Of a stretch of DNA of 64,000 nucleotides, positions 7,002-61,845 are shown piece after piece. Origin of the DNA: an uncultured Thermoleophilia bacterium (GTDB lineage Bacteria > Actinomycetota > Thermoleophilia > UBA2241); the NCBI GenBank assembly GCA_963715985.1, contig CAVQSP010000017.1, forward strand, positions 245,346 to 309,345. Direction: 5' to 3'. Every line of letters begins with the position of its first letter. The stretch's first letter is position 1. The notes under the pieces are model-generated. The model was not told the origin of the DNA, made no database searches, and saw only the letters and a list, made by a program, of their open reading frames with translations. The position numbers and the translations under genes were made by a program.

Positions 7002-7018
7002 CGGCGCGCGTCCGCCGG

Positions 7019-8434: not shown

Positions 8435-8476
8435 GTCGGACGTAGCGCGCCTCTCGTGCGATTGCGGTCACTCGGG

Positions 8477-8503
8477 GTATCGGCAGAAGGTCGGCTTCCA
8501 TGA
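8477..8503 (-). promoter_or_regulatory. sigma28 (FliA/WhiG)-like promoter upstream of the diguanylate cyclase
   Basis: TCAT-N15-GCCGATAC on the minus strand; -10 matches GCCGATAA at 7 of 8 positions. Confidence 0.5.
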
Positions 8504-8544
8504 TAGGTGCCGCCCGGGCCGGCGAGGACGGCCCGCCGTTCGTG

Positions 8545-8745
8545 TCAGATCCGGCCGAGGATGCGGCGGTCGTGCGTGGGACGAGGGCACGTCCGCCGTT
8601 CTTCGATGCGACGCTCGCGCACGTAGTAGGCGCACACCGCGCAGTAGGTGCTGCAGGTGAGACGCGTGTCCACCTCGGCGACGCAGATCATCGGCTGGAA
8701 TGTGATGCGCGGGTCCTTCATGGGGCTCCACGACGTGTTCGGCAT
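8545..8745 (-). CDS. Small Cys-rich protein with ERR/DRR tail (start 8745, 8751 or 8766)
   Basis: Co-oriented in the gap between response regulator and DGC; AAGGAAG upstream; C..C-x3-C-x2-C then ERRIEERR...DRR. Confidence 0.55.
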   Translation of the reverse strand: MPNTSWSPMKDPRITFQPMICVAEVDTRLTCSTYCAVCAYYVRERRIEERRTCPRPTHDRRILGRI

Positions 8746-8791
8746 CCGCACGCGTGCTTCCTTCACGCCGGCGCCCCCCGCCGGCCTCTTG

Positions 8792-9160
8792 TCAGCCCTG
8801 GAGATAGCTCGCCACCACCGTGAGCACCTGGGCGATGCGGAACGGCTTCGTGATGTACCCGTCGATGCCCACGTCGGTGGCGCGCTCCATGTCGGTGGCC
8901 ATGGCTTTGGCCGAGAGCCCGACGATGGTGATGTCCTGGGTGGAGGGGTCGGCCTTGAGCTCGGTGACGGCTTCGTAGCCGCTGACCACCGGCATCATCA
9001 TGTCCATCAGCACGAGGTCGGGGTGATGCTCGCGAGAGAGGTCTACCGCCTCTCGCCCGTTGGTGGCCTTGTAGACAGTGTACCCCTGCGTCTCGAGCGA
9101 CATGGAGACGATGCTCAGGATGTCGGGATCGTCGTCTGCGACCAGGATGGCCTTGGCCAC
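8792..9160 (-). CDS. Single-domain response regulator (DivK/CheY-like)
   Basis: ILVADDD, DLVLMDMMMP, YITKPF; GAGGAGG RBS before GTG 9160. Confidence 0.92.
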   Translation of the reverse strand: MAKAILVADDDPDILSIVSMSLETQGYTVYKATNGREAVDLSREHHPDLVLMDMMMPVVSGYEAVTELKADPSTQDITIVGLSAKAMATDMERATDVGIDGYITKPFRIAQVLTVVASYLQG

Positions 9161-9173
9161 GTCGTGTACCTCC

Positions 9174-11012: not shown

Positions 11013-11139
11013 GGCCTCGCTCGTCTCCCGGCGCTGAAGGTTCGGCGGGTAAGGTATTCTATCTCGGGACCTGACGTTCGTGTGGTGTGCGCACCGCGTG
11101 CTCCCGGCGAGCGCGGCTTGCCGAAAGGAGGACCCCGTC

Positions 11140-45314: not shown

Positions 45315-45361
45315 GGCTCTTCATTCTACTCGACGAGGGACGCGCGGGACGCGCGGCCGGT

Positions 45362-46159
45362 TCAGGCGGGCGCGCGGCTGAGGTCGTCGTCGCCTGCATC
45401 TTCGCCGCGCGGACGCGATTCCTTCTTGGGCTGGACCATGCGGGCCAGCGGGATGGAGATCTCGTACAGCACGACGAGCGGGATGAACATGGCGAGCATG
45501 GAGAAGGCGTCCTGGCTGGGCGTGATGACGGCTGCCACGATGGCGCAGATGATGATGGCCCAGCGGCGGTTCTTCTTGAGGAACTTGTCGTCGATCACGC
45601 CCACCTTGGCGAGGAGCACGAGGATGACGGGCATCTCGAACACCGCCCCGAACGCGAGGATGAACAGGGCGACGAACGTGAAGTAGTCGCTGGCCCGGTT
45701 CTGGATGTTGAAGCTGCCGGCGTTGAACCCCAGCAGGAACTGGAGGCCCTTGGGCAGCACGATCAGGTAGCCGAAGGCCACGCCGCCGAGGAAGAGCGCG
45801 GTGGTGGAGATGACGATGGGGTAGAAGTACTTCTTCTCGGTGGACGTGAAGGCCGGTCCCACGTAGGCCCACAACTGCCAGATGAGGAACGGCGAGGCCA
45901 TGAGGATGCCGGCCACCACCCACACCTTGAGGCTGATCATGAAGGGCTCGGTGGGGCTGAACGTGGTGATCTTGTAGGCGGCCGGATCGAGGTTGGGCAC
46001 CTGCTGCAGGGGATACAGCAGCAGGTCGAAGAGGCGGCTGCTGAAGATGGCCGCGATGAGCACCCCGATGGCGAGCGCGATGACCGACCACATGATGCGC
46101 CCGCGCAGCTCGTCGAGGTGCTCGTAGAGGCTGAGGCGCTCCTCGGGTGAGACGGGCAT
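45362..46159 (-). CDS. tatC: Twin-arginine translocase TatC
   Basis: HLDELRGR, P-x-[19 protein letters not shown]. Confidence 0.95.
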
Positions 46160-46162
46160 GGG

Positions 46163-46720
46163 CTACGCGTCCAGGCCGGCAGCCGGTGCGGCCGCGCCGG
46201 CGGGCTCGGCGCCCGCGGTCACGGCGCCGTCCGGCGTCTCGTCGCCATCGGCGGCGGCCGCGGCGCTGGTGGACGGCGCCGTCGGGGCGGCCACGCCCTG
46301 CGGCCAGCCGTCGTCCTCATCCGCCGCGGGCGCCACCTGGACGGGCTTGTCGACGGCTGCGGCGGCGCCGGAGGCGGCCGCGCCGCCGATGACGGTCTTC
46401 GCCATCGACAGGGGGTTCTTGAGGTCGATGGCCATGCCCGTCTTGATGGCGCTCATCGCCTGCGTGGCGCCGGTGCCCTTGAGCTCGTCGCTGACGCCGT
46501 CCTTGACGCTGTTGAAGTCGCCGGCGATGGAGTCCTTGACGCCCTTGAACTCGTCGATGACCTCGTCGAGGCCGAGCTCGGACCGGGCCGAGTCGGTGGC
46601 GCGCCTGAACTCGCGCACGGCGCGCCCCAGGTTGCGGCCGGCCTGCGGCAGCCGGTTGGGCCCGAACACCAGCAGGGCGATGACGAGCACGAGCACGATC
46701 TCCAGGGGGCCGACGCTCAC
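46163..46720 (-). CDS. TatA/TatB family subunit with long acidic tail
   Basis: [22 protein letters not shown]...GRAVREFRR; directly upstream of tatC (TatB-like). Confidence 0.88.
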
Positions 46721-46857
46721 GGGAGGGGTACCTCGAGTCGAGGGGTATAGAGCCTCTTCAATCTTAGGGGGGCCGGGGACTACGGTCAACGCGGCCCCTC
46801 GCGCGCGTGGGGAAGCCTACGGCAGCGGGCGGCAGCGGTCCCGGGACGAGCGAGGAA

Positions 46858-46992: not shown

Positions 46993-47361
46993 ATGATCGC
47001 TGCATACATCACGGACTGGGTCTACGTGTGGCTCTTCATCGTCGCCGGCGGTGCGCTGGTGTGCGTCATCCTGCTGTTCTCCAAGCTCATCAACCCCAGT
47101 CATCCGACGGCCGAGAAGCTCGCCACGTACGAGTGCGGCATCCCCCCGGTGGGCAATCCGTGGGCGCCGTTCGCCGTGCGCTACTACGTGTTCGGGCTCC
47201 TGTTCCTGGTCTTCGACGTGGAGGCCGTGTTCCTGTTCCCGTGGGCGCTGGTGTTCCGCTCGCTGGGCACCTCGGGGTTCATCGAGATGCTGCTGTTCAT
47301 CGCGGTGCTGGGCGTCGGCCTGCTGTACGCCTGGCGCAAGGGGGCTCTCGAGTGGGCGTGA
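46993..47361 (+). CDS. nuoA: Complex I subunit A
   Basis: [25 protein letters not shown]. Confidence 0.95.
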
Positions 47362-47921
47362 ACGACGGCGAACAGAGCCGCATCAAGGCCATGCGGTACC
47401 CCAAGCTCGAGCACTTCAACAAGCCCAACGTCATCACCACCACCGCCGACTTCATCTTCAGCTGGGCGCGCTCGCATTCGGTGTTCCCGTTCACGTACGG
47501 TCTCGCCTGCTGCGCCATCGAGATGCTCAGCTCGGGCTTCGCGCGCTACGACGTGGCCCGGTACGGCATGGAGGTGTTCCGGCCCACGCCTCGCCAGTGC
47601 GACCTCATGATCGTCGCCGGCACCTGCAACGAGAAGATGGCGCCGGTGCTCAAGCGCCTGTACGACCAGATGTCGGAGCCCAAGTGGGTCATCAGCATGG
47701 GCGCCTGCGCCACCAGCGGCGGTCCGTTCTACGACAGCTACAACGTGGTCAACGGCGTGGACAAGATCGTGCCCGTGGACGTCTACATCCCGGGCTGTCC
47801 GCCCCGCCCCGAGGCGCTCTTCCAGGGCCTGCTCGAGCTGCAGGGCAAGATCCAGCGGTTCAAGTTCGTGCCCGAGGCGCCGGAGCTCGAGGCTGAGGCT
47901 CCGGCGGGGAAGAAGGACTGA
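47358..47921 (+). CDS. nuoB: Complex I subunit B
   Basis: [24 protein letters not shown]. Confidence 0.95.
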
Positions 47922-47923
47922 CC

Positions 47924-48418
47924 GTGCCCCTCGAGGTCGGCACCAACCCCATGAGCATGGACGCCATCGCCGCGCGGCTCGTCGCCGACTTCGCCGGCGA
48001 GCTGCAGGACGTGCGGGTGCAGGAGCCGGACACCGTCGTGGCGCGTTGTCCGCGCGCGTCGCTCAAGGCCGTGGCGCGGCGCCTCAAGGAGCACGCTGAG
48101 ATCGGCTATCAGACGCTCAACTTCGTCGCCGGCGTGGACCGGGTCACTCACCTGGAGAGCGTGTACCACGTGTATTCCTGGAAGACCAACACGTGGCTGC
48201 AGTTGTCTGTCGAGGTCCCGCTGGACCCCGCCGAGGTCGACACCGTGACCGACGTCTGGCCGGCCGCCGACTGGCACGAGCGCGAGTCGTGGGACATGGT
48301 CGGCATCGTGTACGTGGGGCATCCCGACCTGCGTCGCATCCTTCTCAAGGACGACTTCATCGGTCACCCGTTGCGCAAGGACTACGTCGACTCGGTGGAG
48401 AACCACCCGCATGTTTGA
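47924..48418 (+). CDS. nuoC: Complex I subunit C
   Basis: [12 protein letters not shown]...GHPDLRRIL...GHPLRKD. Confidence 0.93.
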
Positions 48419-49625
48419 CCAGTTCGCCACCGCCGAGCCGGACGAGGCCGTGAAGCTCGCCCTTCGGCGCATCGAAGAGTCCAACGCGCGCGGCGAGGGC
48501 TCGAACGTCGAGGGCCTCGCCTTCAACGAGGTCGTCGTCAACATGGGCCCGCAGCACCCCTCCACGCACGGCGTGCTGCGCCTCGTGGTCACACTCGACG
48601 GCGAGCTCATCAAGGACGTCATCCCGGTGATCGGCTACCTGCACCGCTCCAAGGAGAAGCTCGCCGAGAAGCGCACCTACTTCCAGTACATCCCCATCAT
48701 CGACCGCACGGAGTACCTCGCCAGCATCAACTGCGAGTGGGGCTACGTCCTCGCCGTCGAGAAGCTCATGGGCATCCGGCCCACGCGGCGGGCGGAGTTC
48801 ATCCGCGTCATCAGCGGCGAGCTCATGCGCATCGCCAGCCACCTGGTCGCCGTCGGCACCTTCACCGCCGACCTCGCACCGCTGGGCACGGCCATGGTCT
48901 TCTACATGTTCCGCGACCGCGAGAAGATCCTCGACCTGCTCGAGTCGCTCAGCGGCGGGCGCATGATGTTCAACTACTTCCGCTTCGGCGGCGTGCGCTA
49001 CGACCTGCCCGACGGCTGGGTCGAGCAGTGCCGCGACGTCATGAAGAAGATGCCCAAGCTCATCGACGAGTACGAGTCGCTGGTCGACACCAACGCGATC
49101 TTCATGCAGCGCTGCATGGGCAAGGGCGTCATCACCCAGCAGGACGTCATGGACTACGGCATCACCGGGCCCAACGCGCGCGCCTCCGGCGTCGCCCTGG
49201 ACCTGCGGCGCACGCGCCCGTACTCCGTGTATCCGGAGCTCGACTTCGAGGTCTGCACCTTGCCGCACGGCGACGTCTTCGACCGCTACAAGGTGCGCAT
49301 GAACGAGATGCGCGAGTCGGTGAAGATCGTGGAGCAGTGCCTGGACATGCTGCCGCGCGGCCCGGTGCAGCTGGGCTCGCTGCGCGCGCCCTACGTCATC
49401 ACGCCGCCGCCGGGCGCCGTGTACGTGGGCCAGGAGAACCCGCGCGGCGAGTACGGCACCTACATCGAGAGCGACGGGTCGCGGTACCCGTACCGGCTCA
49501 AGTTCCGCGACCCCTGCTTCTGCAACCTGCAGCTCTTCCCCAAGATCCTCACCGGCATCAAGATCGCCGACGCCATCGCCGTGTCCGGCAGCATCGACCT
49601 CGTGCTGGGAGGGATCGACCGCTAG
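48411..49625 (+). CDS. nuoD: Complex I subunit D (quinone-site type, no NiFe CxxC motifs)
   Basis: [32 protein letters not shown]-terminal GGIDR. Confidence 0.95.
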
Positions 49626-50745
49626 ATGGACATCGTCGTCGCCATCCTCCGCGCCGTCCTCTTCGTCGTCATCGCCTACTCGGTGCTGATGGTCGCGGCG
49701 CTCGTGAACATCCTCTTCGAGCGCCGCGCCCTGGCCTTCATGCAGGACCGCCTCGGGCCCAACCGCACCGGGCCCCAGGGGCTGCTGCAGAGCGTGGCCG
49801 ACGCCTTCAAGATGATGGGCAAGGAGGACTTCCGTCCGGCTGCGGCCGACCCGGTGCTGTTCACCCTCGGGCCCATCATCGTGATGATCGGCGCCGTGGG
49901 CGTGCAGCTGGTGACTGCCGTACACCAACGGCCTCACCGGCGCCGACCTGAACATCGGCATCATCTTCATCGTCGCCATCACCGGCTTCACGACGCTGGC
50001 CATCCTGCTGGGCGGCTGGTCGTCCCGCAACAAGTACTCGCTGGTCGGGGCCCTGCGCTCCGCCGCCCAGATGATCTCCTACGAGATCCCCATGATCCTC
50101 GGCCTGCTCGTGGTCGCGATGGTGGTGGGCTCTCTGAGCCTCAACGACGTGGTCGAGGCCCAGTCGGGCTATCAGTGGATCGCCTTCTACGCGCCGTTCA
50201 CCTTCCTCATCTTCTACATCGCCTCCATCGCCGAGCTGAACCGCGGCCCGTTCGACCTGCCGGAGTCGGAGTCGGAGCTCGTCGCCGGCTACGTCACGGA
50301 GTACTCGGGCATGCGCTTCGGCATGTTCTACCTCAACGAGTACGGCGGCCTCACGATCATGTCCATGGTCGCCGTCACCCTCTTCTTCGGCGGCTGGCAG
50401 GGGCCGTTCTCCGACGCGCTGGTGTTCTGGGGCGTGTCGTGGATCGGCATCGTCTGGTTCCTGATCAAGTCGTACATCCTGGTGTTCGCGCTCATCTGGA
50501 TCCGCCTCTCGTTCCCGCGTCTGCAGGTCGACCAGCTCATGGCGTTCGCCTGGAAGGTCCTCATCCCGCTGGGCCTGGTCAACATCCTCTGCACGGCCGC
50601 GGTGATGCTGTGGGTCCCGCAGTGGAAGCTCGGCATGGCCGTGTTCAGCTGGGTCTCCCTGATCGCCTTCGTGGGCCTCTTCGACCCGATCCTCAAGCGC
50701 CGCCTGCGCAAGCAGCGTGAGCGCCAGCCGGTGGTGAACGTCTGA
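49626..50745 (+). CDS. nuoH: Complex I subunit H, one frameshift near 49918
   Basis: ERR...QDRLGPNR..GLLQSVADAFK in first frame; NKYSL.GALR..AQMISYE, RGPFDLPESESELVAG in second frame. Confidence 0.92.
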
Positions 50746-51506
50746 TGCTCGGCATGCTCAAGGCCATGCGCACCACGATCAGCCATCTTCCCAAGCGCAA
50801 GATCACGGTGCAGTACCCGGAGCAGCGCGAACGGCTGCCCGAACGCAGCCGCGGCCTCTTCCGTGTGGTCATCGACCCGGCCAGCGGCGAGCCGCGCTGC
50901 CGCTCCTGCACGCTCTGCGAGAGCAACTGCCCGGTGCAGGTCATCCGCGTGAACCACACGAGCAAGTACGAGCTGCCGGTGCCCAACGCGGCGCGCATCA
51001 TGGATGCGCGCCTCGCCGTGCAGGCCGACGCCGACATCAAGGCCCTGCAGCCGGTGCTGGACGACTACTACGAGCACGGCACCGGCCTCATCGCCATGCT
51101 GCAGAACGCGCAGGCGGTGTACGGCTATCTGCCGCGCGTGGCCATCCAGGAGATCGGCCTGCAGACGGGCATCTCGCTGAGTCAGCTCTACGGCGTCGCG
51201 AGCTTCTACAACCAGTTCCGCCTCTCGCCCGTGGGCGAGTACATCATCGACGTGTGTCACGGCACGGCCTGCCACGTGGCGGGGGCCGTGCAGATCACCG
51301 AGGCTCTGGAGGAGGAGCTCGGCATCCCCGACGGCAAGACCACCAAGGACATGAAGTTCACGCTGTCCTCGGTGGCCTGCATGGGGGCGTGCTCGCAGGC
51401 TCCGGTGATGCGCATCGGCGAGAAGACCTACGGCGGCCTCACCCCTGACAAGACGCGCACCATCATCCGCGACTTCATGACCGAGATCGGCGCGGAGAAA
51501 GGGTGA
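50745..51506 (+). CDS. Fusion: N-terminal half of NuoI plus NuoE/HydC-like [2Fe-2S] subunit
   Basis: ITVQYPEQR..LPERSRG...CRSCTLCESNCP (NuoI N-half, single motif), then LQ.AQ..YGYLP, SFYNQF, CHGTAC, CMGAC. Confidence 0.9.
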   Translation: MLGMLKAMRTTISHLPKRKITVQYPEQRERLPERSRGLFRVVIDPASGEPRCRSCTLCESNCPVQVIRVNHTSKYELPVPNAARIMDARLAVQADADIKALQPVLDDYYEHGTGLIAMLQNAQAVYGYLPRVAIQEIGLQTGISLSQLYGVASFYNQFRLSPVGEYIIDVCHGTACHVAGAVQITEALEEELGIPDGKTTKDMKFTLSSVACMGACSQAPVMRIGEKTYGGLTPDKTRTIIRDFMTEIGAEKG

Positions 51507-51517
51507 GCTGAGCACTC

Positions 51518-53470
51518 ATGGCTGACGAGATCATCAACGAGATCGACGAGACCGCTGCGGCCGAGGCGCCGGCGGCCGAGGCCGTCGCCGAGGCGACCCC
51601 GGTCCCCGAGGCCGAGGCGCGCAACGTGCGCGTCGCGGCGACGCCGGGCGGCGGCTACAAGGTCACCGTGTGCGCCGGCACCGCCTGCGTGTTCGCCGGC
51701 TCGATGGCCGTGTACGACGCGTTCGTGCAGGAGGTGCAGACGGCCGGCCTCGGCGACCGCATCGAGGTCTCCGTCATCGGCTGCCACGGGCTCTGCTCCA
51801 TGAGCCCGGTCGTCGTGCTCAGCGACGACACCCTCTACGGGCACCTGCGCCCGCAGGACGTGGGCAAGGTCGTGGAGGAGCACCTCAAGGGCGGCACGCC
51901 GATCGAGAAGTTCCTCTACAAGGACGCGCACACGGGCGAGCGCATCCGCGACTGGCACGACATCGACTTCTACGCGCAGCAGACGCGCATCGCGCTGCGC
52001 GACGTGGGCGTCATCGACCCCGAGAGCCTGGACGAGTACGTGGCGCGCGGCGGCTACGAGGCCGCGCGCATGGCGCTCGGCGAGAAGACGCCCGAGTGGA
52101 TCATCGAGCACGTCACCGACTCGGGCATCCGCGGGCGCGGCGGCGCCGGCTTCCCCACGGGCGTCAAGTGGAAGTTCGCCAACCAGTCGCAGAGCGACGA
52201 GAAGTACCTCATCTGCAACGCCGACGAGGGCGACCCCGGCGCGTTCATGGACTGCTCGATCCTCGAGGGCGACCCGCACGCCGTGGTCGAGGGCATGATC
52301 ATCGGCAGCTACGCCATCGGCGCGCACGAGGGCTACGTGTACGTGCGCGCCGAGTACCCCCTCGCCGTCAAGCGCCTCACCAAGGCGGTCGCCGACGCGG
52401 AGGCGCGTGGCTATCTCGGCAAGGACGTCTTCGGCACCGGCTGGGAGTTCAACCTGCACCTCAAGCTCGGCGCCGGCGCCTTCGTGTGCGGCGAGGAGAC
52501 GGCCCTCATCGCCAGCATCGAGGGCAGGCGCGGCATGCCGCGCACGCGCCCGCCGTTCCCGGCCGTCTCCGGCCTGTGGGGCAAGCCGACCAACATCAAC
52601 AACGTCGAGACCTTCGCCAACATCCCCTGGATCATCATGCACGGCGCCGACGCCTACGCCGCCCTGGGCGTCGAGGGCTGCCGCGGCACCAAGGCCTTCA
52701 GCCTCGCCGGCAAGGTCGTCAACGGCGGCCTCGTCGAGGTGCCCATGGGCTCCACGCTGCGGCACCTCATCTTCGACGTGGGCGGCGGCGTCAAGGACGG
52801 CCGCCAGTTCAAGGCCGTGCAGCTCGGCGGCCCGTCGGGCGGCTGCATCCCGGCCGGCCTCCTCGACACGCCGGTCGACTACGAGAGCCTGGCCGCGACC
52901 GGCGCCATCGTCGGCTCCGGCGGCATGGTGGTGGTGGACGACGAGACCTGCATGGTGGACCTGGCGCGCTTCTTCCTGGACTTCACGCAGAAGGAGTCGT
53001 GCGGCAAGTGCATACCCTGCCGCCTCGGCACCAAGCGCATGCTGGAGACGCTCGACCGCATCATCGCCGGCGACGGCCAGGACGGCGACATCGAGCTGCT
53101 CGAGGAGCTCAGCCACTACATCATGGACGGGTCGCTGTGTGCCCTGGGCGGCACCGCCCCCAACCCCGTGCTCACCACCATCAAGTACTTCCGCGACGAG
53201 TACGAGGCGCACGTGTACGAGAAGCGCTGCCCCGCCGGCAAGTGCAAAGACCTGATCACCTACTACATCGACGCCGACGCCTGCACGGGCTGCATCCTGT
53301 GCGCCAAGAAGTGCCCCACCTCGTGCATCACGGGCGAGAAGAAGCAGCCGCACGTCATCGACGTGAGCAACTGCATCAAGTGCGACACCTGCCGCCAGGT
53401 CTGCAAGTTCGACGCCGTCAAGGTGCGCTCGGGCATCGCCCAGGCTGCGGCCGCCGGACAGGGAGCCTGA
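51518..53470 (+). CDS. nuoF: HydB/StnB-type NuoF (N-terminal [2Fe-2S], FMN/NAD(H) site, C-terminal 2x[4Fe-4S])
   Basis: CAGTAC...CHGLC, GRGGAGFPTG, ADEGDPGAFMD, GGPSGG, ESCGKCIPCR, two C-terminal ferredoxin motifs. Confidence 0.92.
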   Translation: MADEIINEIDETAAAEAPAAEAVAEATPVPEAEARNVRVAATPGGGYKVTVCAGTACVFAGSMAVYDAFVQEVQTAGLGDRIEVSVIGCHGLCSMSPVVVLSDDTLYGHLRPQDVGKVVEEHLKGGTPIEKFLYKDAHTGERIRDWHDIDFYAQQTRIALRDVGVIDPESLDEYVARGGYEAARMALGEKTPEWIIEHVTDSGIRGRGGAGFPTGVKWKFANQSQSDEKYLICNADEGDPGAFMDCSILEGDPHAVVEGMIIGSYAIGAHEGYVYVRAEYPLAVKRLTKAVADAEARGYLGKDVFGTGWEFNLHLKLGAGAFVCGEETALIASIEGRRGMPRTRPPFPAVSGLWGKPTNINNVETFANIPWIIMHGADAYAALGVEGCRGTKAFSLAGKVVNGGLVEVPMGSTLRHLIFDVGGGVKDGRQFKAVQLGGPSGGCIPAGLLDTPVDYESLAATGAIVGSGGMVVVDDETCMVDLARFFLDFTQKESCGKCIPCRLGTKRMLETLDRIIAGDGQDGDIELLEELSHYIMDGSLCALGGTAPNPVLTTIKYFRDEYEAHVYEKRCPAGKCKDLITYYIDADACTGCILCAKKCPTSCITGEKKQPHVIDVSNCIKCDTCRQVCKFDAVKVRSGIAQAAAAGQGA

Positions 53471-53477
53471 GAGGACG

Positions 53478-55955
53478 ATGGCCACCACCGTCGACGACAT
53501 CGCCCGCACGCAGGCCCGCCCCGACCAGGTGCTGGTCAGCATCGACGGCCAGGAGGTCGCCTGCGATCGCGGCGACACCATCCTGGAGGCGGCGCGGCGC
53601 CTCGGCATCCACATCCCCACGCTGTGCTACGAGCCGCGGCTGCCCGCCACGGCCGCCTGCCGCATGTGCATCGTGGAGATCGAGGGCGCGCGCAAGATGG
53701 TGCCGAGCTGCTCCGCGGCCGTCGCCGACGGCATGGTGGTGCGCACCAACACGGACAAGGTGCGCGCCATGCGGCACCTGTACCTCGAGCTGCTGCTGAG
53801 CGACCACAACTCGTTCTGCACGCCGCCCTGCCGCGACGCCTGCCCCACGCACATCAAGATCCCGCAGTTCCTCGAGTACATCGCGCACAAGGACTACAAG
53901 AACGGCGTGCGCAAGCTGCGCGAGGACCTGCCCTTCCCTGCCGTGCTCGGGCGCGTGTGCCCGCGGCCCTGCGAGGGCCCGTGCCGCCGGCAGCTCGTGG
54001 AGCAGCCCATCACCATCTGCCAGCTGCATCGCTTCATGGCCGACCAGACCATCGACGAGGAGCAGGAGGGCGAGCTGCTGCTGCCGGTCGAGCCCAAGGC
54101 CGACACCGGCAAGCGCATCGCCGTGGTCGGCGGCGGCCCGGCGGGCCTGGCCGCCGCCTTCTACGCCCGTCTCGAGGGCCACTCCGTCAAGATCTTCGAG
54201 GCGCTGCCCAAGGTGGGCGGCATGCTGCGCTACGGCATCCCCAGCTACCGCCTGCCCCGCGACGTGGTCGAGAAGGAGACCAACGTCCTGTGGCGCATGG
54301 GCGTCGAGCTGCAGGTCAACAGCCGCCTGGGCGTGGACTACCAGATCGAGGACCTCTTCGACGAGGGCTTCGACACCGTCTTCCTGGCGCTCGGCGCCTT
54401 CAACTCCAACGACATGGGCTGCCCCGGCGAGGACGCCGACGGCGTGGTCACTGCAGTCGACTTCCTCGGCGAGCTCGAGCTCACCGGCGAGGTGCACGTG
54501 GGCCAGAAGGTCACCGTGATCGGCGGCGGCTTCACCGCCATGGACGCCTGCCGCACCTCGATCCGCAAGGGCGCCGCCGAGGTCACCTGTCTGTACCGGC
54601 GCTCGCGCAAGGAGATGCCGGCCCACCACACCGAGGTCGACGAGGCCGAGGAGGAGGGCGTCAAGCTCGAGCTGCTGTGCGCGCCCGTCAAGGTCCTCAC
54701 CGACGCGGCCAACAAGGTGACGGGCATCGAGATGCTGCGCATGGAGCTCGGCGAGCCCGACGCCTCCGGCCGCCGCCGCCCGGTGCCCATCGAGGGCAGC
54801 GAGTTCGTCGTGGAGTGCGACCAGGTCATCACCGCCATCGGCCAGTTCCCCAAGCTGGACGGCACCAGTGAGGAGCAGGGCGTCAAGCGCACCAAGTGGC
54901 GCACCATCGAGGTCGACGACTGGACCTTCCAGACGGACGACCCGCGCGTGTTCGCCGGCGGCGACGTCGTGCTCGGCGCGCAGACCGTGATCCAGGCCGT
55001 CGCCCAGGGCAAGAAGGCGGCCTGGAGCATGGACGCCTACCTGCGCGGCGCCGACATGAAGGAGATCTCGCAGTCGCTGGCCGAGCTCAAGGCCACGCCG
55101 TTCTTCAGCGCGCTCTCGGCCAAGGCCGATCTGGATCCGACCGTGGCGCGCATGGCCGAGATCCCGCCGGTGTTCATCGACATGACCACGGACGTCACGC
55201 ACCCGAGCCCGCCGGCCGACATGCCCAAGCTGTCTCCGGAGGAGCGCCGCACCAACTTCAAGCAGATCGAGCTCGGCTTCCCCGAAGAGGAGGCCGTGCG
55301 CGGCGCCGACCTGTGCCTGGACTGCTACTGCCCGGCCAGCGGCACGTGCGACCTGCAGCGGTACAGCATCGACTACGAGGTCTTCAAGAACCGCTTCCAC
55401 GGCGGCGAGGCGCACGACTACCCGGCCGACTTCCGCCACGACTTCATCATGCGCGAGCCCAACCGCTGCATCAACTGCGGCCGCTGCGTGCGCGTGTGCC
55501 GCATGGAGGTCGGGTCGAGCTGCTACGACAACATGGGCCGCGGCTACGACTCCATCGTCTCCACCGCCGACAACCTGCCGCTGCAGCTCGTGGGCTGCAT
55601 CAGCTGCGGCAAGTGCTCCGAGACGTGCCCGACCGGCTCCATCGAGACCAACCCGCGGCGCCTGGAGAGCTACGACCTCGACGAGAGCCGCTGCATCTTC
55701 TGCGGCGAGTGCGTGGAGGTCTGCCCCTACGACGCCCTCGAGCAGACCGACTTCTTCGAGCTCGCCGGCTACAGCCGCAGCGCGCTCGCCGGCGAGTCGC
55801 TGTTCGTGCGCGAGGCGCGCCCGGCCGACCCGCTGCGCGAGAACGTCAAGGACCTCGTGCCGCACGTGCTCGACGCCGAGCGCGGCAACGGCTGGACGTG
55901 GGAGCCCATCAAGGACGACCCCATCGTGCTGGACGAACCGGGAGGCGGCAGCTGA
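53478..55955 (+). CDS. Fusion: NuoG-like Fe-S N-terminus, inserted GltD/NfnB-like FAD/NADPH domain, 2x[4Fe-4S], C-terminal half of NuoI
   Basis: IPTLC..CRMC, HNSFCTPPC..ACP, GRVCP..CE, GGGPAG, YGIP, YRRS, CINCGRC, CISCGKC, then YDLDESRCIFCGECVEVCP..FELA.YSR. Confidence 0.9.
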   Translation: MATTVDDIARTQARPDQVLVSIDGQEVACDRGDTILEAARRLGIHIPTLCYEPRLPATAACRMCIVEIEGARKMVPSCSAAVADGMVVRTNTDKVRAMRHLYLELLLSDHNSFCTPPCRDACPTHIKIPQFLEYIAHKDYKNGVRKLREDLPFPAVLGRVCPRPCEGPCRRQLVEQPITICQLHRFMADQTIDEEQEGELLLPVEPKADTGKRIAVVGGGPAGLAAAFYARLEGHSVKIFEALPKVGGMLRYGIPSYRLPRDVVEKETNVLWRMGVELQVNSRLGVDYQIEDLFDEGFDTVFLALGAFNSNDMGCPGEDADGVVTAVDFLGELELTGEVHVGQKVTVIGGGFTAMDACRTSIRKGAAEVTCLYRRSRKEMPAHHTEVDEAEEEGVKLELLCAPVKVLTDAANKVTGIEMLRMELGEPDASGRRRPVPIEGSEFVVECDQVITAIGQFPKLDGTSEEQGVKRTKWRTIEVDDWTFQTDDPRVFAGGDVVLGAQTVIQAVAQGKKAAWSMDAYLRGADMKEISQSLAELKATPFFSALSAKADLDPTVARMAEIPPVFIDMTTDVTHPSPPADMPKLSPEERRTNFKQIELGFPEEEAVRGADLCLDCYCPASGTCDLQRYSIDYEVFKNRFHGGEAHDYPADFRHDFIMREPNRCINCGRCVRVCRMEVGSSCYDNMGRGYDSIVSTADNLPLQLVGCISCGKCSETCPTGSIETNPRRLESYDLDESRCIFCGECVEVCPYDALEQTDFFELAGYSRSALAGESLFVREARPADPLRENVKDLVPHVLDAERGNGWTWEPIKDDPIVLDEPGGGS

Positions 55956-56467
55956 TGCCGGGTGGCGACTTCCATCCCTGGCTGTTCTTCATCCTCGCCG
56001 CGTGGATCCTCATCTGCGCCCTCGGCGTCGTGGCCTTCAAGAAGATCATGTACTCGGCCGTGTCCATGGTCGCCTGCTTCCTGGGCGTGGCCTTCGCCTA
56101 CGCCCTCCTGGCGGCGCCGCTGGTGGCCATCGTCCAGCTGCTCGTGTACGTGGGCGCGATCTCCATCGTCATCATCTTCGCCATCATGCTCACCGAGGTG
56201 CAGCACGGCGGCTACGACCTGTTCTTCAACAAGCAGACCGCCTTCGCGGCGCCGCTCGCCGTGGCCGCCGCCGCCGTGGTCATCGCCGTCCTGGCCATGT
56301 CGGACATCGGCGCCGTCGGCACCAAGGCGCTCAACCCCGGCCTGCAGGAGCTCTCGCAGCTGCTGTTCGCCGGCTACGTGTTCCCCTTCGAGCTGGTGTC
56401 GCTCGTGCTGGTCGCGGCGATGATCGGCGCCATCGTGCTGGCGCGCCGCGAGGAGGAGAAGTCGTGA
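55955..56467 (+). CDS. nuoJ: Complex I subunit J
   Basis: QLLVYVGAI..FAIML, YVFPFEL.S..L..AMIGAI. Confidence 0.93.
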   Translation: MPGGDFHPWLFFILAAWILICALGVVAFKKIMYSAVSMVACFLGVAFAYALLAAPLVAIVQLLVYVGAISIVIIFAIMLTEVQHGGYDLFFNKQTAFAAPLAVAAAAVVIAVLAMSDIGAVGTKALNPGLQELSQLLFAGYVFPFELVSLVLVAAMIGAIVLARREEEKS

Positions 56468-56772
56468 GCGCCCTCTACTGGTGGCTCACGCTCGCCGTGC
56501 TGCTCTTCTGCATCGGCGCCTTCGGGGTGCTGGCGCGCCGCAACGTGATCGTCGTCGTCATGTGCCTCGAGCTCATGCTCAACGCCGTCAACATCGCCCT
56601 CGTGGCCGTCTCCAACTTCCGCGGCGGCGCCGAGGGCGCCGGCGAGCTCTTCTCGCTCTTCATCATCGTGCTGGCGGCGTCCGAGGTCACGGTGGGCCTC
56701 GCCATCATCATCGCCAACTACCGCAACCGCCGCACCGTGCAGACCGACCAGTTCGACGAGCTCAAGGGCTGA
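56464..56772 (+). CDS. nuoK: Complex I subunit K
   Basis: RRN...ELMLNAVN, AASE..VGLA, C-terminal LKG. Confidence 0.93.
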   Translation: MSALYWWLTLAVLLFCIGAFGVLARRNVIVVVMCLELMLNAVNIALVAVSNFRGGAEGAGELFSLFIIVLAASEVTVGLAIIIANYRNRRTVQTDQFDELKG

Positions 56773-56784
56773 GCGGGAGCATTC

Positions 56785-58719
56785 GTGGAGGGAGCTCAGC
56801 ACATCATCACCGAGGCGACACAGACGATGAAGATCGCCGTGGCGCTCATCCCGCTGCTGCCGCTGCTCGGCTTCATCCTCACGCTGGTGCTCGGCAAGCG
56901 CTGGGGCACCAAGGCGCACATCCTGCCGGTGGCCCTGGTCACGGGCTCCGCGGCGCTGTGCATCTACGGCTTCATCTGGATCTTCAGCCACCAGCAGGAG
57001 ACGTTCGTCTGGAACGCCTTCACGTGGGTGGCGGCCGGCCGCTTCGAGGTGTCGTGGGGCTTCCAGGTGGACGGCCTCACCGGCGTCATGCTGCTCGTGG
57101 TGGGCGTCATCGGCATGCTCGTGCACTACTACTCCATCGGCTACATGCACGGCGACGAGGGCTACTACCGCTTCTTCGCCTACCTCAACCTGTTCATGTT
57201 CGCGATGTTCGTGCTCATCCTCGCGGACAACTACCTGCTGCTCTTCCTCGGCTGGGAGGGCGTGGGGCTGTGCTCCTACCTGCTGATCTCGTTCTGGTTC
57301 GGCAAGAAGAGCGCCAGCCAGGCCGGCAAGAAGGCGTTCCTGGTCAACCGCGTGGGCGACTTCGGCTTCACGCTGGGCATGTTCCTCATCTTCATGGTCA
57401 CGGGCACGCTGCAGTTCACCGGCGTCTTCGAGAAGGCCGACTCCATCGCCTCGGGCACGCTGCTGTGGATCTGCCTGCTGCTGTTCACCGGCGCCGTGGG
57501 CAAGAGCGCCCAGTTCCCGCTGCACGTGTGGCTGCCGGACGCCATGGAGGGCCCCACCCCGGTCAGCGCCCTGATCCACGCCGCCACCATGGTCAACGCC
57601 GGCGTGTACATGGTGGCGCGCTCCTACCCGCTGTTCCTGCAGTCGCACACGGCGATGCTGGTGGTGATGGGCATCGGCGCCTTCACGGCCATCTACGCGG
57701 CGTACATCGCGATCACCCAGAACGACATCAAGAAGGTGATCGCGTACTCCACCGTCTCGTCGCTGGGCTTCATGTTCCTCGCCCTCGGCGCCGGCGCCTG
57801 GGTGGCCGGCATCTTCTACCTGTTCGCGCACGGCTTCTTCAAGGGCCTCATGTTCCTCTGCTCCGGCTCGGTGATCCACGCCATGGGCGGCGAGCAGGAC
57901 ATGCGCAAGATGGGCGGCCTGCGCAAGAAGATCCCCATCACCTTCTGGACGATGCTCGTCGGCGCCCTCGCCATGGTCGGCATCATCCCGTTCGCCGGCT
58001 TCTGGGCGAAGGACGAGATCATCGGCGCCGCCTTCGTGCGCGGCTACTACGTGGTGTGGGCGGTGGCCATGGTCACCGTGCTGCTCACCGGCATCTACGT
58101 GTTCCGCCTCATCTTCATGACCTTCTGGGGCAAGAGCCGCGCCGACGAAGAGGTGCAGCACCACATCCACGAGTCGCCGCCGATCATGACCGTCCCGCTC
58201 ATCCTCCTCGCCATCCCCGCGGCCGGGCTCGGCCTGCTCGTCGGTCTCCCGCCCGAGGGCGGCTGGCTCAGCCGGTTCCTCGAGCCCGTGTTCTTCGAGT
58301 CGGAGCACGAGGTCTTCACCTGGATCGGCGAGGGCGGTGCCCTCATGGGCCTCTCCCTGATCACCGCCGTCATCGGCATCTTCGTCGCCTACCGCCTGTA
58401 CGTGCGCTCGGTCGACACGCCCGGCCGCATGGCCCATCGCGTGCCGGTGCTGTACAAGGCCAGCTTCAACAAGATGTACATGGACGAGCTCTACAACGTG
58501 GTGGCCATCCGCAGCACCATCGCCTTCGCCGGCTGGCTGTGGACGTTCTTCGACGTGAAGATCATCGACGGCGCCGTGAACGGCGTCGCGCGCCTCTGGG
58601 AGATCTTCGGCGAGCGCCTGCGGCCGCTGCAGACCGGGCGCGTGCAGAACTACGCCCTCGGCATCTTCGCCGGCATGCTCGTGCTGGTCGTCGTGCTCGC
58701 CTGGGTCTGGGGGGCGTGA
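56785..58719 (+). CDS. nuoL: Complex I antiporter subunit L
   Basis: WEGVGLCSYLLI, NRVGD, KSAQFPLHVWLPDAMEGPTPVSALIHAATMV, QTGRVQNY. Confidence 0.95.
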   Translation: MEGAQHIITEATQTMKIAVALIPLLPLLGFILTLVLGKRWGTKAHILPVALVTGSAALCIYGFIWIFSHQQETFVWNAFTWVAAGRFEVSWGFQVDGLTGVMLLVVGVIGMLVHYYSIGYMHGDEGYYRFFAYLNLFMFAMFVLILADNYLLLFLGWEGVGLCSYLLISFWFGKKSASQAGKKAFLVNRVGDFGFTLGMFLIFMVTGTLQFTGVFEKADSIASGTLLWICLLLFTGAVGKSAQFPLHVWLPDAMEGPTPVSALIHAATMVNAGVYMVARSYPLFLQSHTAMLVVMGIGAFTAIYAAYIAITQNDIKKVIAYSTVSSLGFMFLALGAGAWVAGIFYLFAHGFFKGLMFLCSGSVIHAMGGEQDMRKMGGLRKKIPITFWTMLVGALAMVGIIPFAGFWAKDEIIGAAFVRGYYVVWAVAMVTVLLTGIYVFRLIFMTFWGKSRADEEVQHHIHESPPIMTVPLILLAIPAAGLGLLVGLPPEGGWLSRFLEPVFFESEHEVFTWIGEGGALMGLSLITAVIGIFVAYRLYVRSVDTPGRMAHRVPVLYKASFNKMYMDELYNVVAIRSTIAFAGWLWTFFDVKIIDGAVNGVARLWEIFGERLRPLQTGRVQNYALGIFAGMLVLVVVLAWVWGA

Positions 58720-58720
58720 C

Positions 58721-60309
58721 GTGACCTGGAGCGACCAGATCGGCCTCCCCATCCTCAGCCTCATCACCTTCCTGCCGCTCGCCGGCGTCGTGCTCATGCT
58801 GCTCTTCGGCCGCGGGCGCCCGCAGGTCTACAAGGTGATCGCCCTCGTCTCCACGCTGGCCGCGTTCGCGCTCAGCATCTGGATGATGGTCGCCTTCGAC
58901 ACCAAGGCCAAGGGCATGCAGTTCGTCGAGGACGTGATGTGGATCAAGCAGTTCAACATCCACTACAGCTTCGGCGTGGACGGCATCGCCGCCCTGCTGC
59001 TGTTCCTCACCACGTTCCTCGGCGTCATCGTGATCATCGGCAGCTGGAACTACGTGAAGGACAGGGAGCGGGGCTTCTTCGCCTCCCTGCTGCTGCTGCA
59101 GGTCGGCATGGCCGGCGTGTTCTGCGCCACCGACCTCTTCCTCTTCTACGTGTTCTGGGAGGTCATGCTGGTGCCGATGTACTTCATCATCGGTATCTGG
59201 GGCGGGCCGCGGCGCATCTACGCGGCCATCAAGTTCTTCCTCTTCACGCTCGTCGGCAGCCTGCTCATGCTGATCGCCATCATCGTGGTGGTGTACGCGG
59301 CCAAGAGCGGCCTGGGCCACATCACCTTCGACATCCAGGAGCTCGGGCGGCAGGTGTACACGTACCACATCCAGTTCTGGGCCTTCCTCGCCTTCTTCGT
59401 GGCCTTCGCCATCAAGGTGCCGATGTTCCCGGTGCACACCTGGCTCCCGGACGCCCACGTCGAGGCGCCCACGGCGGGCTCGGTGATCCTGGCCGGCGTG
59501 CTGCTGAAGATGGGTGGATACGGCATCCTGCGCTTCTGCCTGCCGTTCTTCCCGGACGCCGCCGTCACGTTCATCCCCTACATCGTGGCGCTCTCGGTGA
59601 TCGCCATCGTGTACGGGGCCCTGGTGTCGATGGTGCAGAAGGACCTCAAGAAGCTGGTCGCCTACTCGAGCGTGAGCCACATGGGCTTCGTGACGGCCGG
59701 CATCTTCGCCGCCATCGCCGTGGTGGGCAACGCCGGCGGGCATGGAGGGCGCCATCCTGGTGATGTTCAGCCACGGCCTGCTCACGGGCGCCCTCTTCCT
59801 CATGGTCGGCTACATGTACGAGCGCACGCACACGCGGCAGATCGCCGACCTGGGGCAGCTGGCCAAGCCGCTGCCCATCATGGCCGGCTTCTTCCTCTTC
59901 TTCGTGTTCGGCTCGCTGGGGCTGCCCGGGCTCAGCGGGTTCGTGGGCGAGTTCCTGAGCCTGCTCGGGCTGTTCGCCTACTCGCACTGGCTGGCGGCGG
60001 TGGCGGCGCTCGGCGTGATCCTCGCCGCCGCCTACCTGCTCTGGATGTTCCAGCGCACCATGTTCAACGACCGCGGCGACGCCGAGGTCAAGCCCGCGGG
60101 TCCGCTCCACGACCTCGACCCTGCGTGAGATCGTCACGCTGGTGCCGCTCGTCGCCCTGGTCATCTGGGTCGGCGTCTATCCGGTCACGTGGCTCAACTA
60201 CCTGCACGTGCCCGTCAACGAGATCCTGGACCGCGTCACGCCGGCGCTGAGCAGCGCCCATACGCACGCCCTGGCCCAGCTCGTCGACGCCGCCAAGGGG
60301 CTGTTCTAG
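58721..60309 (+). CDS. nuoM: Complex I antiporter subunit M, two frameshifts (about 59740 and 60120)
   Basis: FYVFWE, KVPMFPVHTWLPDAHVEAPT, AYSSVSHMG; then SHGL, GLPGLSGFVGE; then REI..L.PL....W.GVYP ending TAG 60309. Confidence 0.92.
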
Positions 60310-61845
60310 ATGGGCGCCAACAACGCCATCGTCGTCATCCTGCCGGGCGTGGTGATCGCCGCGGCCGCGGCCCTGGTCTTCATCGTCGACCTCTTCACCT
60401 CGCGCAAGGGCGTGCTCGCCTGGCTCGCGGCCGCCGGGCTCGTCGCCGGCGCGGCCGTGGCCGTCGGCCAGTGGATCACGTACTCAGGCGGCCTGGCCTT
60501 CAACGCGCGCAAGCCCGAGAGCGGCTTCGCCGGCATGGTGTCCCTCGACAAGTACGCCGTGTTCTGCGTGGTGCTGTTCGCGGCCATCGGCGTGGCCACG
60601 GTGATGCTGTCGGACTCGTACCTCGCCCGCCGTCACGCCGCCCGCGGCGAGTTCTACGGGCTCCTGCTGCTCATCGTCAGCGGCATGATCGGCCTCGCCA
60701 TCAGCACCGACGTCATCGCCTTCTTCGTCTCGTTCGAGCTCATGTCGCTGCCCACGTACATCCTCGCCGGCTACCTGTGGCGCGACGAGCGCTCGGGCGA
60801 GGCGTCGATCAAGTACTTCGTCACCGGCGCCTTCTCCTCGGCCATCCTGGCCTTCGGCCTGGCGCTGCTGTACGGCGCCACCGGCCAGACCACCTATGCA
60901 GGTATCGCCAAGGGCCTGAGCACGCTCACCGCCCCGGACGCGCGCGGCTTCCTCGTGCTCGCCTTCGTGCTCGTGGTCACGGGCTTCGGCTTCAAGATCT
61001 CGGCGGTGCCGTTCCACAGCTGGGCGCCGGACGTGTACGAGGGCGCGCCCACGCCGGTCACCGCCTTCATGTCCACGGGCATCAAGGCCGCCGCCTTCGC
61101 CGGCTTCGCCAAGCTCTTCGTGGTCGCCGCAAGCATCCAGTGGCAGCTGTGGGTGCACACCATGACGATCCTCGCCGTCATCACCATGATCGTCGGGAAC
61201 GTGCTGGCGCTGCCGCAGCGCAACCTCAAGCGCATGCTGGCGTACTCCAGCATCGCCCACGCCGGCTACCTCACGCTGGGCCTCATCGCGGCGGGCACGT
61301 CCGGCGACAGCCTCGGCGTCTCGGCGATCCTCTTCTACCTCGTCACCTACGCGCTCATGAACCTCGGCGCCTTCGGCACGCTCATCTGGATCCGCAACCG
61401 CCGTGCCTTCCGGTACACGCTGGACGAGATGGCCGGGCTCGGCAGGTCCATGCCCTGGCCCGGCATGCTGATGGCCGTGTTCATGGTGTCGCTGGTCGGC
61501 ATCCCGCCGACGGCCGGCTTCTGGGGCAAGTTCTACCTGTTCACGGCCGTCATCCAGGCCGACCTCACGTGGCTCGCCATCGTGGCCGTGATCATGAGCG
61601 CCGTGTCCGCGTACTACTACCTGCGCGTGGTCTGGTACATGTACTTCCGCGAGGCGGAGGCCGGCGAGGCCGCCGCCGCGGGCGCCGCCGCGACCGAGCT
61701 CGTGCCCGCCAATCCTGGGACGTCCCAGGCCGGCGTGGCCGCCGCGGTCGTCATCTGCGCCATCGGCGTCATCGCCGTCGGTCTGTTCCCCGGCCCGCTG
61801 CTGCACGCCGCGCAGGGCGCCGTGCGCGTCGTCCTCGGCGGGTGA
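60310..61845 (+). CDS. nuoN: Complex I antiporter subunit N
   Basis: EASIKYF, FKISAVPFHSWAPDVYEGAPTP, KRMLAYSSIAHAGY, GIPPTAGF.GK. Confidence 0.95.
   Translation: MGANNAIVVILPGVVIAAAAALVFIVDLFTSRKGVLAWLAAAGLVAGAAVAVGQWITYSGGLAFNARKPESGFAGMVSLDKYAVFCVVLFAAIGVATVMLSDSYLARRHAARGEFYGLLLLIVSGMIGLAISTDVIAFFVSFELMSLPTYILAGYLWRDERSGEASIKYFVTGAFSSAILAFGLALLYGATGQTTYAGIAKGLSTLTAPDARGFLVLAFVLVVTGFGFKISAVPFHSWAPDVYEGAPTPVTAFMSTGIKAAAFAGFAKLFVVAASIQWQLWVHTMTILAVITMIVGNVLALPQRNLKRMLAYSSIAHAGYLTLGLIAAGTSGDSLGVSAILFYLVTYALMNLGAFGTLIWIRNRRAFRYTLDEMAGLGRSMPWPGMLMAVFMVSLVGIPPTAGFWGKFYLFTAVIQADLTWLAIVAVIMSAVSAYYYLRVVWYMYFREAEAGEAAAAGAAATELVPANPGTSQAGVAAAVVICAIGVIAVGLFPGPLLHAAQGAVRVVLGG

Follow-up and report, generated by a model that had tools for sequence, protein, structure and literature searches.

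Respiratory complex I is usually described as an enzyme in which one input module, NuoEFG or a ferredoxin or F420 adaptor, is mounted on an intact NuoI. How a complex I might be fed when NuoI itself is interrupted by the genes of another flavoenzyme is the question raised by an operon of an uncultured Thermoleophilia bacterium, located in a 64,000-nucleotide stretch of a metagenome-assembled genome (MAG) that is referred to here as the window (assembly GCA_963715985.1, contig CAVQSP010000017.1, positions 245,346 to 309,345 of the forward strand). The operon is tightly packed on the plus strand, in DNA of about 70% G+C, and has the gene order nuoABCDH-[three-gene module]-JKLMN; the three module genes, at 50745-51506, 51518-53470 and 53478-55955, encode proteins of 253, 650 and 825 amino acids. 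It is proposed, with moderate confidence, that the operon specifies a working variant of respiratory complex I in which NuoEFG is replaced by a module derived from StnABC/NfnABC and fused to a split NuoI, and which takes its electrons from NADH and NADPH. A first-pass annotation had marked positions 51518 to 55955 as an inserted Stn-type module wired to a proton pump; this covers the second and third module genes and leaves out the first, and it mentions neither the split of NuoI, by which the module is attached, nor the single-base frameshifts in nuoH and nuoM.

The search for NuoI leads to the two ends of the module. Residues 4-70 of the 253-residue protein match the N-terminal halves of NDUFS8/TYKY/Nqo9 (phmmer, E 3.5e-10 to 1e-6) and align with residues 7-73 of Nqo9, and residues ~727-770 of the 825-residue protein match the second halves of NuoI/TYKY/Nqo9 (phmmer, E 2e-11 to 2e-6) and align with Nqo9 residues 88-130. 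Against a canonical NuoI profile, made from the second NuoI of the same genome and seven proteobacterial NuoI sequences, hhalign matched residues 3-72 of the first protein with a probability of 98.8% (E 5e-17) and residues 705-772 of the third with a probability of 99.05% (E 2e-18). The canonical NuoI copy, on contig C13 of the same genome, is one 219-residue frame; in the window operon the two CxxCxxCxxxCP motifs expected on one NuoI polypeptide are divided, motif 1 lying on the 253-residue protein and motif 2 on the 825-residue protein, and no further nuoI is found between nuoH and nuoJ. The back half follows the NuoG-type cluster domain of the 825-residue protein within about 20 residues, and the protein ends 76 residues past Cys749 with a NuoI-type tail. 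By homology, the nuoI gene of an operon of the 11-gene type (ABCDHIJKLMN) contains the three module genes, its product being split into complementary halves. That the module is tied to a quinone-type complex I, as the first-pass annotation had it, is borne out by its position inside the nuo operon, by the overlapping stop and start codons at both of its edges (nuoH/module and module/nuoJ) and by the NuoI halves on its first and last proteins.

What has been placed between the two halves is indicated by the PDB chains that the three proteins match. Residues 95-245 of the 253-residue protein match 9n5u_C ('NfnC'), 9bov_C and 8oh5_A (E 6e-47 to 2e-42); the 650-residue protein matches 7t2r_B, 8oh5_B, 9bov_B and 9n5u_B ('NfnB'; E 6e-243 to 8e-237); and residues 16-749 of the 825-residue protein match 9bov_A (E 9e-189), 8oh5_C (E 7e-164) and 9n5u_A ('NfnA'; E 3e-157). 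The 1172 residues of 8oh5_C equal the length of Sporomusa StnC given in PMC10482914, and the numbering of 9bov_A fits the ligands Cys108/147/151 and Lys170 of Caldicellulosiruptor NfnA given in PMC11829005. The matches of all three subunits identify the module as a homologue of StnABC/NfnABC ('Nfn-Bfu'), so that the Stn-type assignment made at first sight is upheld, with E-values from 1e-42 to 1e-243 for the StnABC/NfnABC chains.

The NuoE-like and NuoF-like subunits carry the features of a bifurcating core. The NuoE-like domain of the window has the C1 [2Fe-2S] cluster ligands of a BfuC, and the 650-residue protein has the flavin mononucleotide (FMN)/NADH site and B1 cluster of a BfuB together with the extra B2 (Cys3His), B3/B4 and B5 sites. 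Its domains are an N-terminal thioredoxin-like [2Fe-2S] domain (residues 18-121, PF01257, E 5e-11), an FMN domain (199-370, PF01512, E 2e-48), an NADH_4Fe-4S domain (481-565, E 2e-33) and a C-terminal domain with two [4Fe-4S] clusters (582-635, Pfam); C443, H565, C571 and C576 make up the Cys/His set, and the translation contains GDPGAFMD and FKAVQLGGPSGGC. All of the NuoF peculiarities listed at first pass, among them the extra [2Fe-2S] and 2x[4Fe-4S] domains, GAFMD and the Cys/His set, were thus located by Pfam and in the translation. In PMC9304861 and PMC11829005 the C1, B1, Cys3His, B3/B4 and B5 sites define bifurcating BfuB/BfuC, and B2 (Cys3His), B3/B4 and B5 are sites absent from non-bifurcating NuoF.

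The 825-residue protein begins with a Fer2_4 [2Fe-2S] domain (residues 17-92) and an H110-x3-C114 motif, continues with a GltD-type segment made of Fer4_20 (PF14691, 114-194) and Pyr_redox_2 (PF07992, 213-511, with YRRS at Y373-S376), and resumes with C613/C616/C618/C624 and a two-cluster, NuoG-type ferredoxin-like Fer4_Nqo3 domain (656-721). The GltD-type flavin adenine dinucleotide (FAD)/NADPH domain, with its two clusters, therefore interrupts the His-ligated cluster motif between H110-x3-C114 and C613-C624, and the alignment with 9bov_A extends across it, over residues 18-745. Pfam gave matches to 23 families at E<=0.001, none of them a molybdopterin or hydrogenase H-cluster family. Pfam and the translation here agree with the first-pass description of a GltD-like FAD domain with YRRS set into an H-x3-C...C motif, in a subunit devoid of molybdopterin domain and H-cluster. 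The formate-dehydrogenase-like C-terminal domain of Nfn-Bfu is missing, and the NuoI back half stands in its place. In soluble StnC this domain builds the tetramer (PMC10482914). PMC11829005 describes for soluble NfnA a path from FAD through A7, A6, A3, A2 and A1 to B1-FMN-C1 and then to B3/B4, with a side branch A2-A4-A5 into the inactive formate-dehydrogenase-like domain that is termed a dead end. Since that domain is gone and the NuoI back half is there instead, the cluster network would gain an exit through N6a/N6b-type clusters, and the dead-end branch of the soluble enzyme is consistent with its re-use as the way out to NuoI.

Is this arrangement a peculiarity of one assembly? Two families carry it, the window's own (f1) and a second, sister family (f6). 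All 22 loci examined in relatives (16 of f1, from at least nine genera, and six of f6) keep the order nuoD-nuoH-[NuoI-front::NuoE-like]-NuoF-like-[StnC-like::NuoI-back]-nuoK-nuoL, some of the matches in loci L038 and L046 being partial. Across 401 genomes that sample the class evenly, the window's own among them, 69 of the 80 f1 genomes have the fusion junction (residues 1-130) in a single frame, 23 of the 24 f6 genomes have the NuoI front half at the beginning of a frame of about 600 residues, and the other families have canonical NuoI-sized frames only. When the phylum was sampled instead, again with 401 genomes that include the window's own and represent 248 genera, matches at E<=1e-16 were confined to f1 and f6 genomes. 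The four Cys of the NuoI front half are kept in 16/16 f1 and 6/6 f6 orthologues, the Cys of the back half in 15/15 and 6/6, and all Cys/His ligands of the StnC-like protein in 15/15 and 6/6. The ligands of C1, B1, the Cys3His site, B3/B4 and B5 are kept in 15-16 of 16 f1 orthologues, those of C1 in all 16. In f6 the NuoI front half, a ligand-less NuoE remnant and a short NuoF form one fused protein of about 600 residues (L027, L028, L032 and L047-L049), which lacks the C1 ligands (0/6), B3/B4, B5 and C443 and retains the FMN motifs and B1; the GltD-bearing StnC-like protein and both NuoI halves are fully conserved there (6/6).

The operon's own NuoD gene is the only gene of the NuoD family in four of five near-complete genomes of the same genus (97-100% complete); as their gene content reads, the split-NuoI form is the sole complex I of these cells. 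Publicly named carriers are MAGs labelled 'Thermoleophilia bacterium', 'Gaiellales bacterium' or 'Actinobacteria bacterium'. A contig search with the f6 fused protein and two NuoI-type patterns returned four loci from Thermoleophilia/Actinomycetes MAGs; the other 76 loci are mostly proteobacterial and match partially, to the NuoI-type N-terminus or the NuoF-type part. A search of protein clusters gave 53 clusters, and those that bear names are from Thermoleophilia or Gaiellales only. A third lineage, known from metagenomes (P0357-P0359, 858-869 residues), is represented by P0357, which is 46% identical to the 825-residue protein over residues 17-767, the NuoI back half included. The organisms are uncultured and recur in wetland metagenomes; in six RNA runs just 6-7% of the sampled words were present.

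The remainder of the operon bears on the question of the acceptor. Pfam matches were obtained for all ten complex I subunits NuoA, B, C, D, H, J, K, L, M and N, so quinone-module and membrane-arm subunits are both present, with the NuoD His/Tyr motifs and, in the translation of NuoB, an N2-type Cys pattern CC...C...CP. The NuoD motifs GPQHPSTHG and GYLHR occur in every orthologue aligned there (21/22 loci; the NuoD alignment of L026 covers the C-terminal part only). Of the Cys residues typical of NiFe hydrogenases, the N-terminal pair is missing from NuoD; one Cys of the hydrogenase DPC motif, at residues 366-374, persists as a vestige in 16/16 f1 orthologues and is not conserved in f6 or in the canonical NuoD of the same genome. 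The first-pass statement that NuoD keeps the quinone-site His and Tyr therefore holds, and its companion, that NuoD lacks NiFe ligands, is nearly right, one vestigial Cys remaining in f1. Menaquinone genes, for which the first-pass annotation had recommended a check, are present as those of the futalosine pathway, which explains the lack of a match to MenA (TIGR00751) and the failure of MenB to reach its cut-off in this 88.8%-complete genome. The coordinates of the operon are collected in Table 1. Upstream of it, on the minus strand at 43059-46789, the translations indicate genes for a class A penicillin-binding protein, whose C-terminal tail is long and rich in Pro and Thr, for TatC and for a TatA-like protein.

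Table 1. Genes and domains of the nuo operon and its module, in window coordinates.
Feature	Coordinates	Strand	Basis and remarks
nuoA	46993..47361	+	PF00507, E 1.7e-38; start taken at ATG
nuoB	47391..47921	+	PF01058, E 5e-30; earlier GTG starts possible at 47352 or 47358
nuoC	47924..48418	+	PF00329, E 1.5e-38
nuoD	48411..49625	+	PF00346, E 5e-92; quinone-site His and Tyr motifs
nuoH	49626..50745	+	PF00146; broken by one extra base at 49914
NuoI front half fused to NuoE-like protein	50745..50960	+	residues 1-72 of the 253-residue protein; Cys 52, 55, 58, 62
NuoE/BfuC/StnA-like domain	51030..51506	+	PF01257, E 1e-46; C1 [2Fe-2S] ligands C171, C176, C212, C216
BfuB/StnB/HydB-type NuoF	51518..53470	+	Pfam and PDB chains; B5, FMN/NADH site, B1, Cys3His (B2/Zn), B3/B4
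BfuA/StnC/NfnA-like part	53478..55655	+	residues 1 to ~726; PDB chain matches and Pfam
NuoI back half	55656..55955	+	residues ~727-825; Cys 739, 742, 745, 749 and NuoI-type tail
nuoJ	55955..56467	+	PF00499, E 8e-28; start overlaps stop codon of preceding gene
nuoK	56464..56772	+	PF00420, E 9e-29
nuoL	56785..58719	+	PF00361, E 5e-85, and PF00662
nuoM	58721..60309	+	PF00361; broken by extra bases at 59735 and 60123
nuoN	60310..61845	+	PF00361, E 1.4e-71

The same genome contains eight NuoF-type loci and pyruvate:ferredoxin oxidoreductase genes, which points to a ferredoxin-rich metabolism. The closest paralogue of the StnC-like protein lies on contig C10 (L029, ~6025-10410, minus strand); it is 65% identical, keeps molybdopterin domains, has no adjacent BfuB/BfuC genes and extends over two frames in the assembly. 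On contig C11 (L030, 246000-265900, at ~3400-11913) the gamma, delta and alpha genes of a pyruvate:ferredoxin oxidoreductase are followed by three module-type genes: the first encodes a NuoE-like protein that begins with a half-ferredoxin, the second a BfuB-type NuoF (58% identical), and the third a StnC-like protein that is fused to PorB and has, besides the GltD insert, a third ferredoxin motif. To judge from this domain composition, the Por-linked enzyme re-uses the same split half-ferredoxin 'plug'; StnC-like::PorB fusions of 1030-1060 residues make up at least 40 clusters. On contig C13 (L130, 519000-534000) the closest paralogues of the NuoE-like (54%) and NuoF-like (71%) genes are encoded directly downstream of formate-tetrahydrofolate ligase and FolD, which suggests a Bfu enzyme linked to C1 metabolism. 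In a quick IQ-TREE tree of the StnC-like proteins (LG+G4, 69 rows, first 800 residues of each protein), the nuo-embedded proteins of f1 and f6 fall into one clade (Shimodaira-Hasegawa-like approximate likelihood ratio test 98), apart from 44 of the 45 representatives and together with two soluble-type paralogues of the window's own genome, those on contigs C10 and C11; one insertion, two insertions and secondary release are all compatible with this topology.

We propose that the enzyme would work as follows. The two NuoI halves would unite into one two-cluster (N6a/N6b-type) ferredoxin domain, which would tether the module to NuoB/C/D/H and serve as the electron exit. The FMN of the NuoF-like subunit would oxidise NADH and the FAD of the GltD-type insert would oxidise NADPH; the electrons from both would join in the NuoG-type cluster domain and leave via the rebuilt NuoI clusters to N2 and menaquinone, with protons being pumped. 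Besides NADH, NADPH is a probable source of electrons for the proton pump, and a dual NAD(P)H:menaquinone input would be the safest functional reading of the conserved sites; reduced ferredoxin as a third donor, or ferredoxin as an acceptor in reverse, appears possible rather than probable. The sister family bears on this choice: f6 has dispensed with C1, B3/B4 and B5 and retains the GltD domain, the FMN site, B1 and the split NuoI, so that NAD(P)H input looks like the core function that has been conserved, and since the spliced layout persists there without these sites, bifurcation is not essential to the design.

Several observations weigh against this proposal. The genome of the window also has a canonical nuoC-N cluster, on contig C13 (L131, 192000-208500), with a short NuoF and an intact NuoI; some 7 kb away from it is a gene for subunit I of a haem-copper oxidase, and a cytochrome bd gene is present in the genome. 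In tblastn comparisons at least the nuoD and nuoN genes of that cluster show frame changes. The ligand that follows the FAD in Nfn-Bfu is altered as well. According to PMC11829005, Lys170 of Caldicellulosiruptor NfnA ligates the first cluster after the FAD, is called conserved, and its mutation in Stn lowers (bifurcating) activity. The aligned residue in the window is His184, and a His occupies this position in 24/24 clade members (16 of f1, six of f6 and the two own-genome paralogues), against a Lys in 45/45 database representatives, so that the NADPH branch may have altered properties. The hhalign match of the StnC-like protein to NuoI (residues 705-772) takes in the preceding Cys motif, so that another pairing of motifs is possible; the pairing adopted here comes from homology and from counting four CxxCxxCxxxC motifs for two two-cluster domains, and it is favoured because the two upstream motifs form one domain in solved StnC/NfnA. 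In an AlphaFold2 monomer model of the 253-residue protein the NuoI front half is of low confidence, with a predicted local distance difference test score (pLDDT) of 30-42 over residues 1-80, and the NuoE-like part reaches a pLDDT of 85-95 over about residues 100-250; the low values decide nothing, because the alignment held only 17 sequences. Finally, the ferredoxin-side and bifurcation-site ligands of f1 are under clear purifying selection, for which the reading as a plain NAD(P)H dehydrogenase has no explanation.

This selection speaks for a four-substrate energy-converting enzyme, in which the [B1-FMN-C1] site would con- or bifurcate NADH and ferredoxin, NADPH and menaquinone would be mid- and high-potential partners, and ion translocation would be coupled. 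The retention of the C1, B1, Cys3His, B3/B4 and B5 ligands across at least nine f1 genera argues for it, as these are the very sites that define bifurcating BfuB/BfuC in the literature cited above; the gene content of the genome points to a ferredoxin-rich metabolism, and a confurcating 'Nuo-Bfu' with menaquinone has been proposed for Geobacter-type operons in PMC9304861. Yet f6 keeps the spliced design with neither C1 nor B3/B4 nor B5, an ungated direct path to menaquinone would short-circuit the predicted bifurcation, and the Lys-to-His change hits the residue whose mutation in Stn lowered bifurcating activity (PMC11829005). We regard this reading as possible though unlikely. The first-pass annotation had gone as far as a membrane complex able to couple NADPH, NADH, ferredoxin and quinone to ion motive force; an FMN/NADH site, an FAD/NADPH site and intact ferredoxin-side ligands can indeed be recognised in the protein sequences, and the losses in f6 temper that conclusion. 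A wider version is doubtful: a redox hub coupled to proton motive force, in which the bifurcating [B1-FMN-C1], NADPH and quinone sites share one cluster network via the spliced split NuoI, and whose plug is re-used in the Por-linked paralogue on contig C11. If it were true, a single enzyme could poise the pools of NADH, NADPH and ferredoxin against that of menaquinone and against the membrane potential, and would do so as the sole complex I of several species.

Complex I is reversible, and the operon could in principle encode an enzyme that works mainly backwards, a membrane-bound supplier of NADPH for biosynthesis in which proton motive force drives menaquinol electrons to NADP+ (and to NAD+ or ferredoxin). 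Soluble Stn/Nfn enzymes serve NADPH production (PMC10482914 and PMC11829005), and forward NADH oxidation could fall to the canonical complex I, which is encoded near a haem-copper oxidase gene. This is improbable: in the four of five near-complete relatives that have no other complex I, forward NADH oxidation would be required of the window-type enzyme, and the analysis identified no electron donor by which the menaquinone pool would become over-reduced.

It might also be argued that the operon is a decaying pseudogene cluster in this genome, as three single extra bases, none of them within a long homopolymer, break nuoH and nuoM, and rpoB and rpoC are each in one frame. PF00146 matches nuoH at profile positions 5-88 in a first frame and 87-298 in a second, and PF00361 matches nuoM at profile positions 1-192 only, against 1-285 in the relative L021. 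However, the extra 'a' at 49914 is absent from 5/5 relatives, the extra nuoM bases 59735 and 60123 are both absent from 4/4 relatives of the same genus, and near-identical contigs from four wetland metagenome runs omit base 49914 (X1, X2 and X4), 59738 (X1, X3 and X4) and 60117 (X2); these contigs also span the fusion junctions without gaps. Frame changes in comparison with the relative G002 occur at eight places spread over the 64-kb window, and frame changes occur also in other loci of the same MAG. Five of the places in the window, beyond the three in nuoH and nuoM, are at ~8781, 21969, 22331, 35496 and 53403 in the comparison with the syntenic region of G002. The intact rpoB and rpoC mean that the error rate of the MAG is not extreme; all three module genes are intact, and the absence of the extra bases from relatives and from metagenome contigs, together with the frame changes elsewhere in the MAG, leads us to read them as assembly errors. 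The three extra bases are most likely consensus errors of the MAG, and a decaying operon is very improbable. Least credible of all is an ordinary soluble transhydrogenase merely encoded inside the nuo operon with no physical attachment: the close homology of all three proteins to soluble enzymes speaks for it, but in 22/22 loci the first and the last module protein each include a NuoI half in frame, the operon has no intact nuoI, and the tetramerising C-terminal domain of StnC is absent.

With the dual NAD(P)H-fed complex I as the preferred reading, the locus would have consequences beyond this genome. If NADPH is oxidised, the anabolic nucleotide pool would be linked directly to respiration and proton pumping. 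The two families offer a natural test case for the acquisition of an N-module by complex I and for the coupling of Bfu-type bifurcation to a quinone site, the stripped-down module of f6 being a built-in comparison of the design with and without its ferredoxin and bifurcation clusters.

A complex I with a bifurcating-type module has already been proposed. 'Nuo-Bfu', predicted in 2022 for Deferribacteres, Proteobacteria (Geobacter), Planctomycetes and Nitrospirae, is a complex I with BfuABC in the place of NuoEFG (PMC9304861). The window enzyme resembles it in combining a complex I cluster with a bifurcating-type BfuB/BfuC input module, menaquinone being the acceptor proposed for Nuo-Bfu, and differs from its description in that the module lies inside nuoI, the BfuA is of the Nfn type and the taxon is another one; the main text of PMC9304861 has 0 occurrences of 'GltD', 'NuoI' or 'Actinobacteria'. 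In the literature searched, which excluded subscription journals, no account was found of a NuoI that is split and carries an Nfn-type module.

A second point of comparison is provided by the Mbx-like operons of Thermotoga and proteobacteria, in which, according to PMC4758237, a gltD-related flavoprotein substitutes for NuoI. Both have a NAD(P)-binding flavoprotein of the GltD type where NuoI would stand in a complex-I-like operon. The Mbx-like systems as described there are linked to Mrp, are hydrogenase-like and are proposed NAD(P)+ reducers; unlike in these, NuoI is split and not replaced in the window, and a NuoE/NuoF-type module and the quinone-site residues of NuoD are present.

To the soluble StnABC/NfnABC enzymes (PDB 8oh5/8oh9, 9bov/9bp5 and 9n5u/9n5v) the module is alike in all three subunit types, in domain order and in cluster ligands, the GltD-type FAD/NADPH domain being inserted at the same place of the NuoG-type domain and the BfuB extras (thioredoxin-like domain, Cys3His site and C-terminal two clusters) being present. 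Unlike in these, the formate-dehydrogenase-like tetramer-interface domain of about 450 residues has given way to the NuoI back half, the NuoE-like subunit carries the NuoI front half, the Lys ligand after the FAD is a His, and the genes are part of a nuo operon; the window enzyme probably resides in the membrane and has quinone as an additional partner.

With canonical 14-subunit complex I (NuoA-N, or Nqo1-15 of Thermus), finally, the window enzyme shares NuoA, B, C, D, H and J-N, the quinone residues of NuoD and the N2 motif of NuoB, and an electron chain from FMN through B1(N3), [2Fe-2S], the NuoG-type clusters and the NuoI clusters to N2 is plausible. Unlike canonical complex I, with its gene order ABCDEFGHIJKLMN, the window operon reads ABCDH-[module]-JKLMN, the C-terminal domain of NuoG is missing and an NADPH-type flavoprotein domain is added; and its core iron-sulfur subunit NuoI is cut in two, each half being fused to a different protein of the borrowed flavoprotein module.

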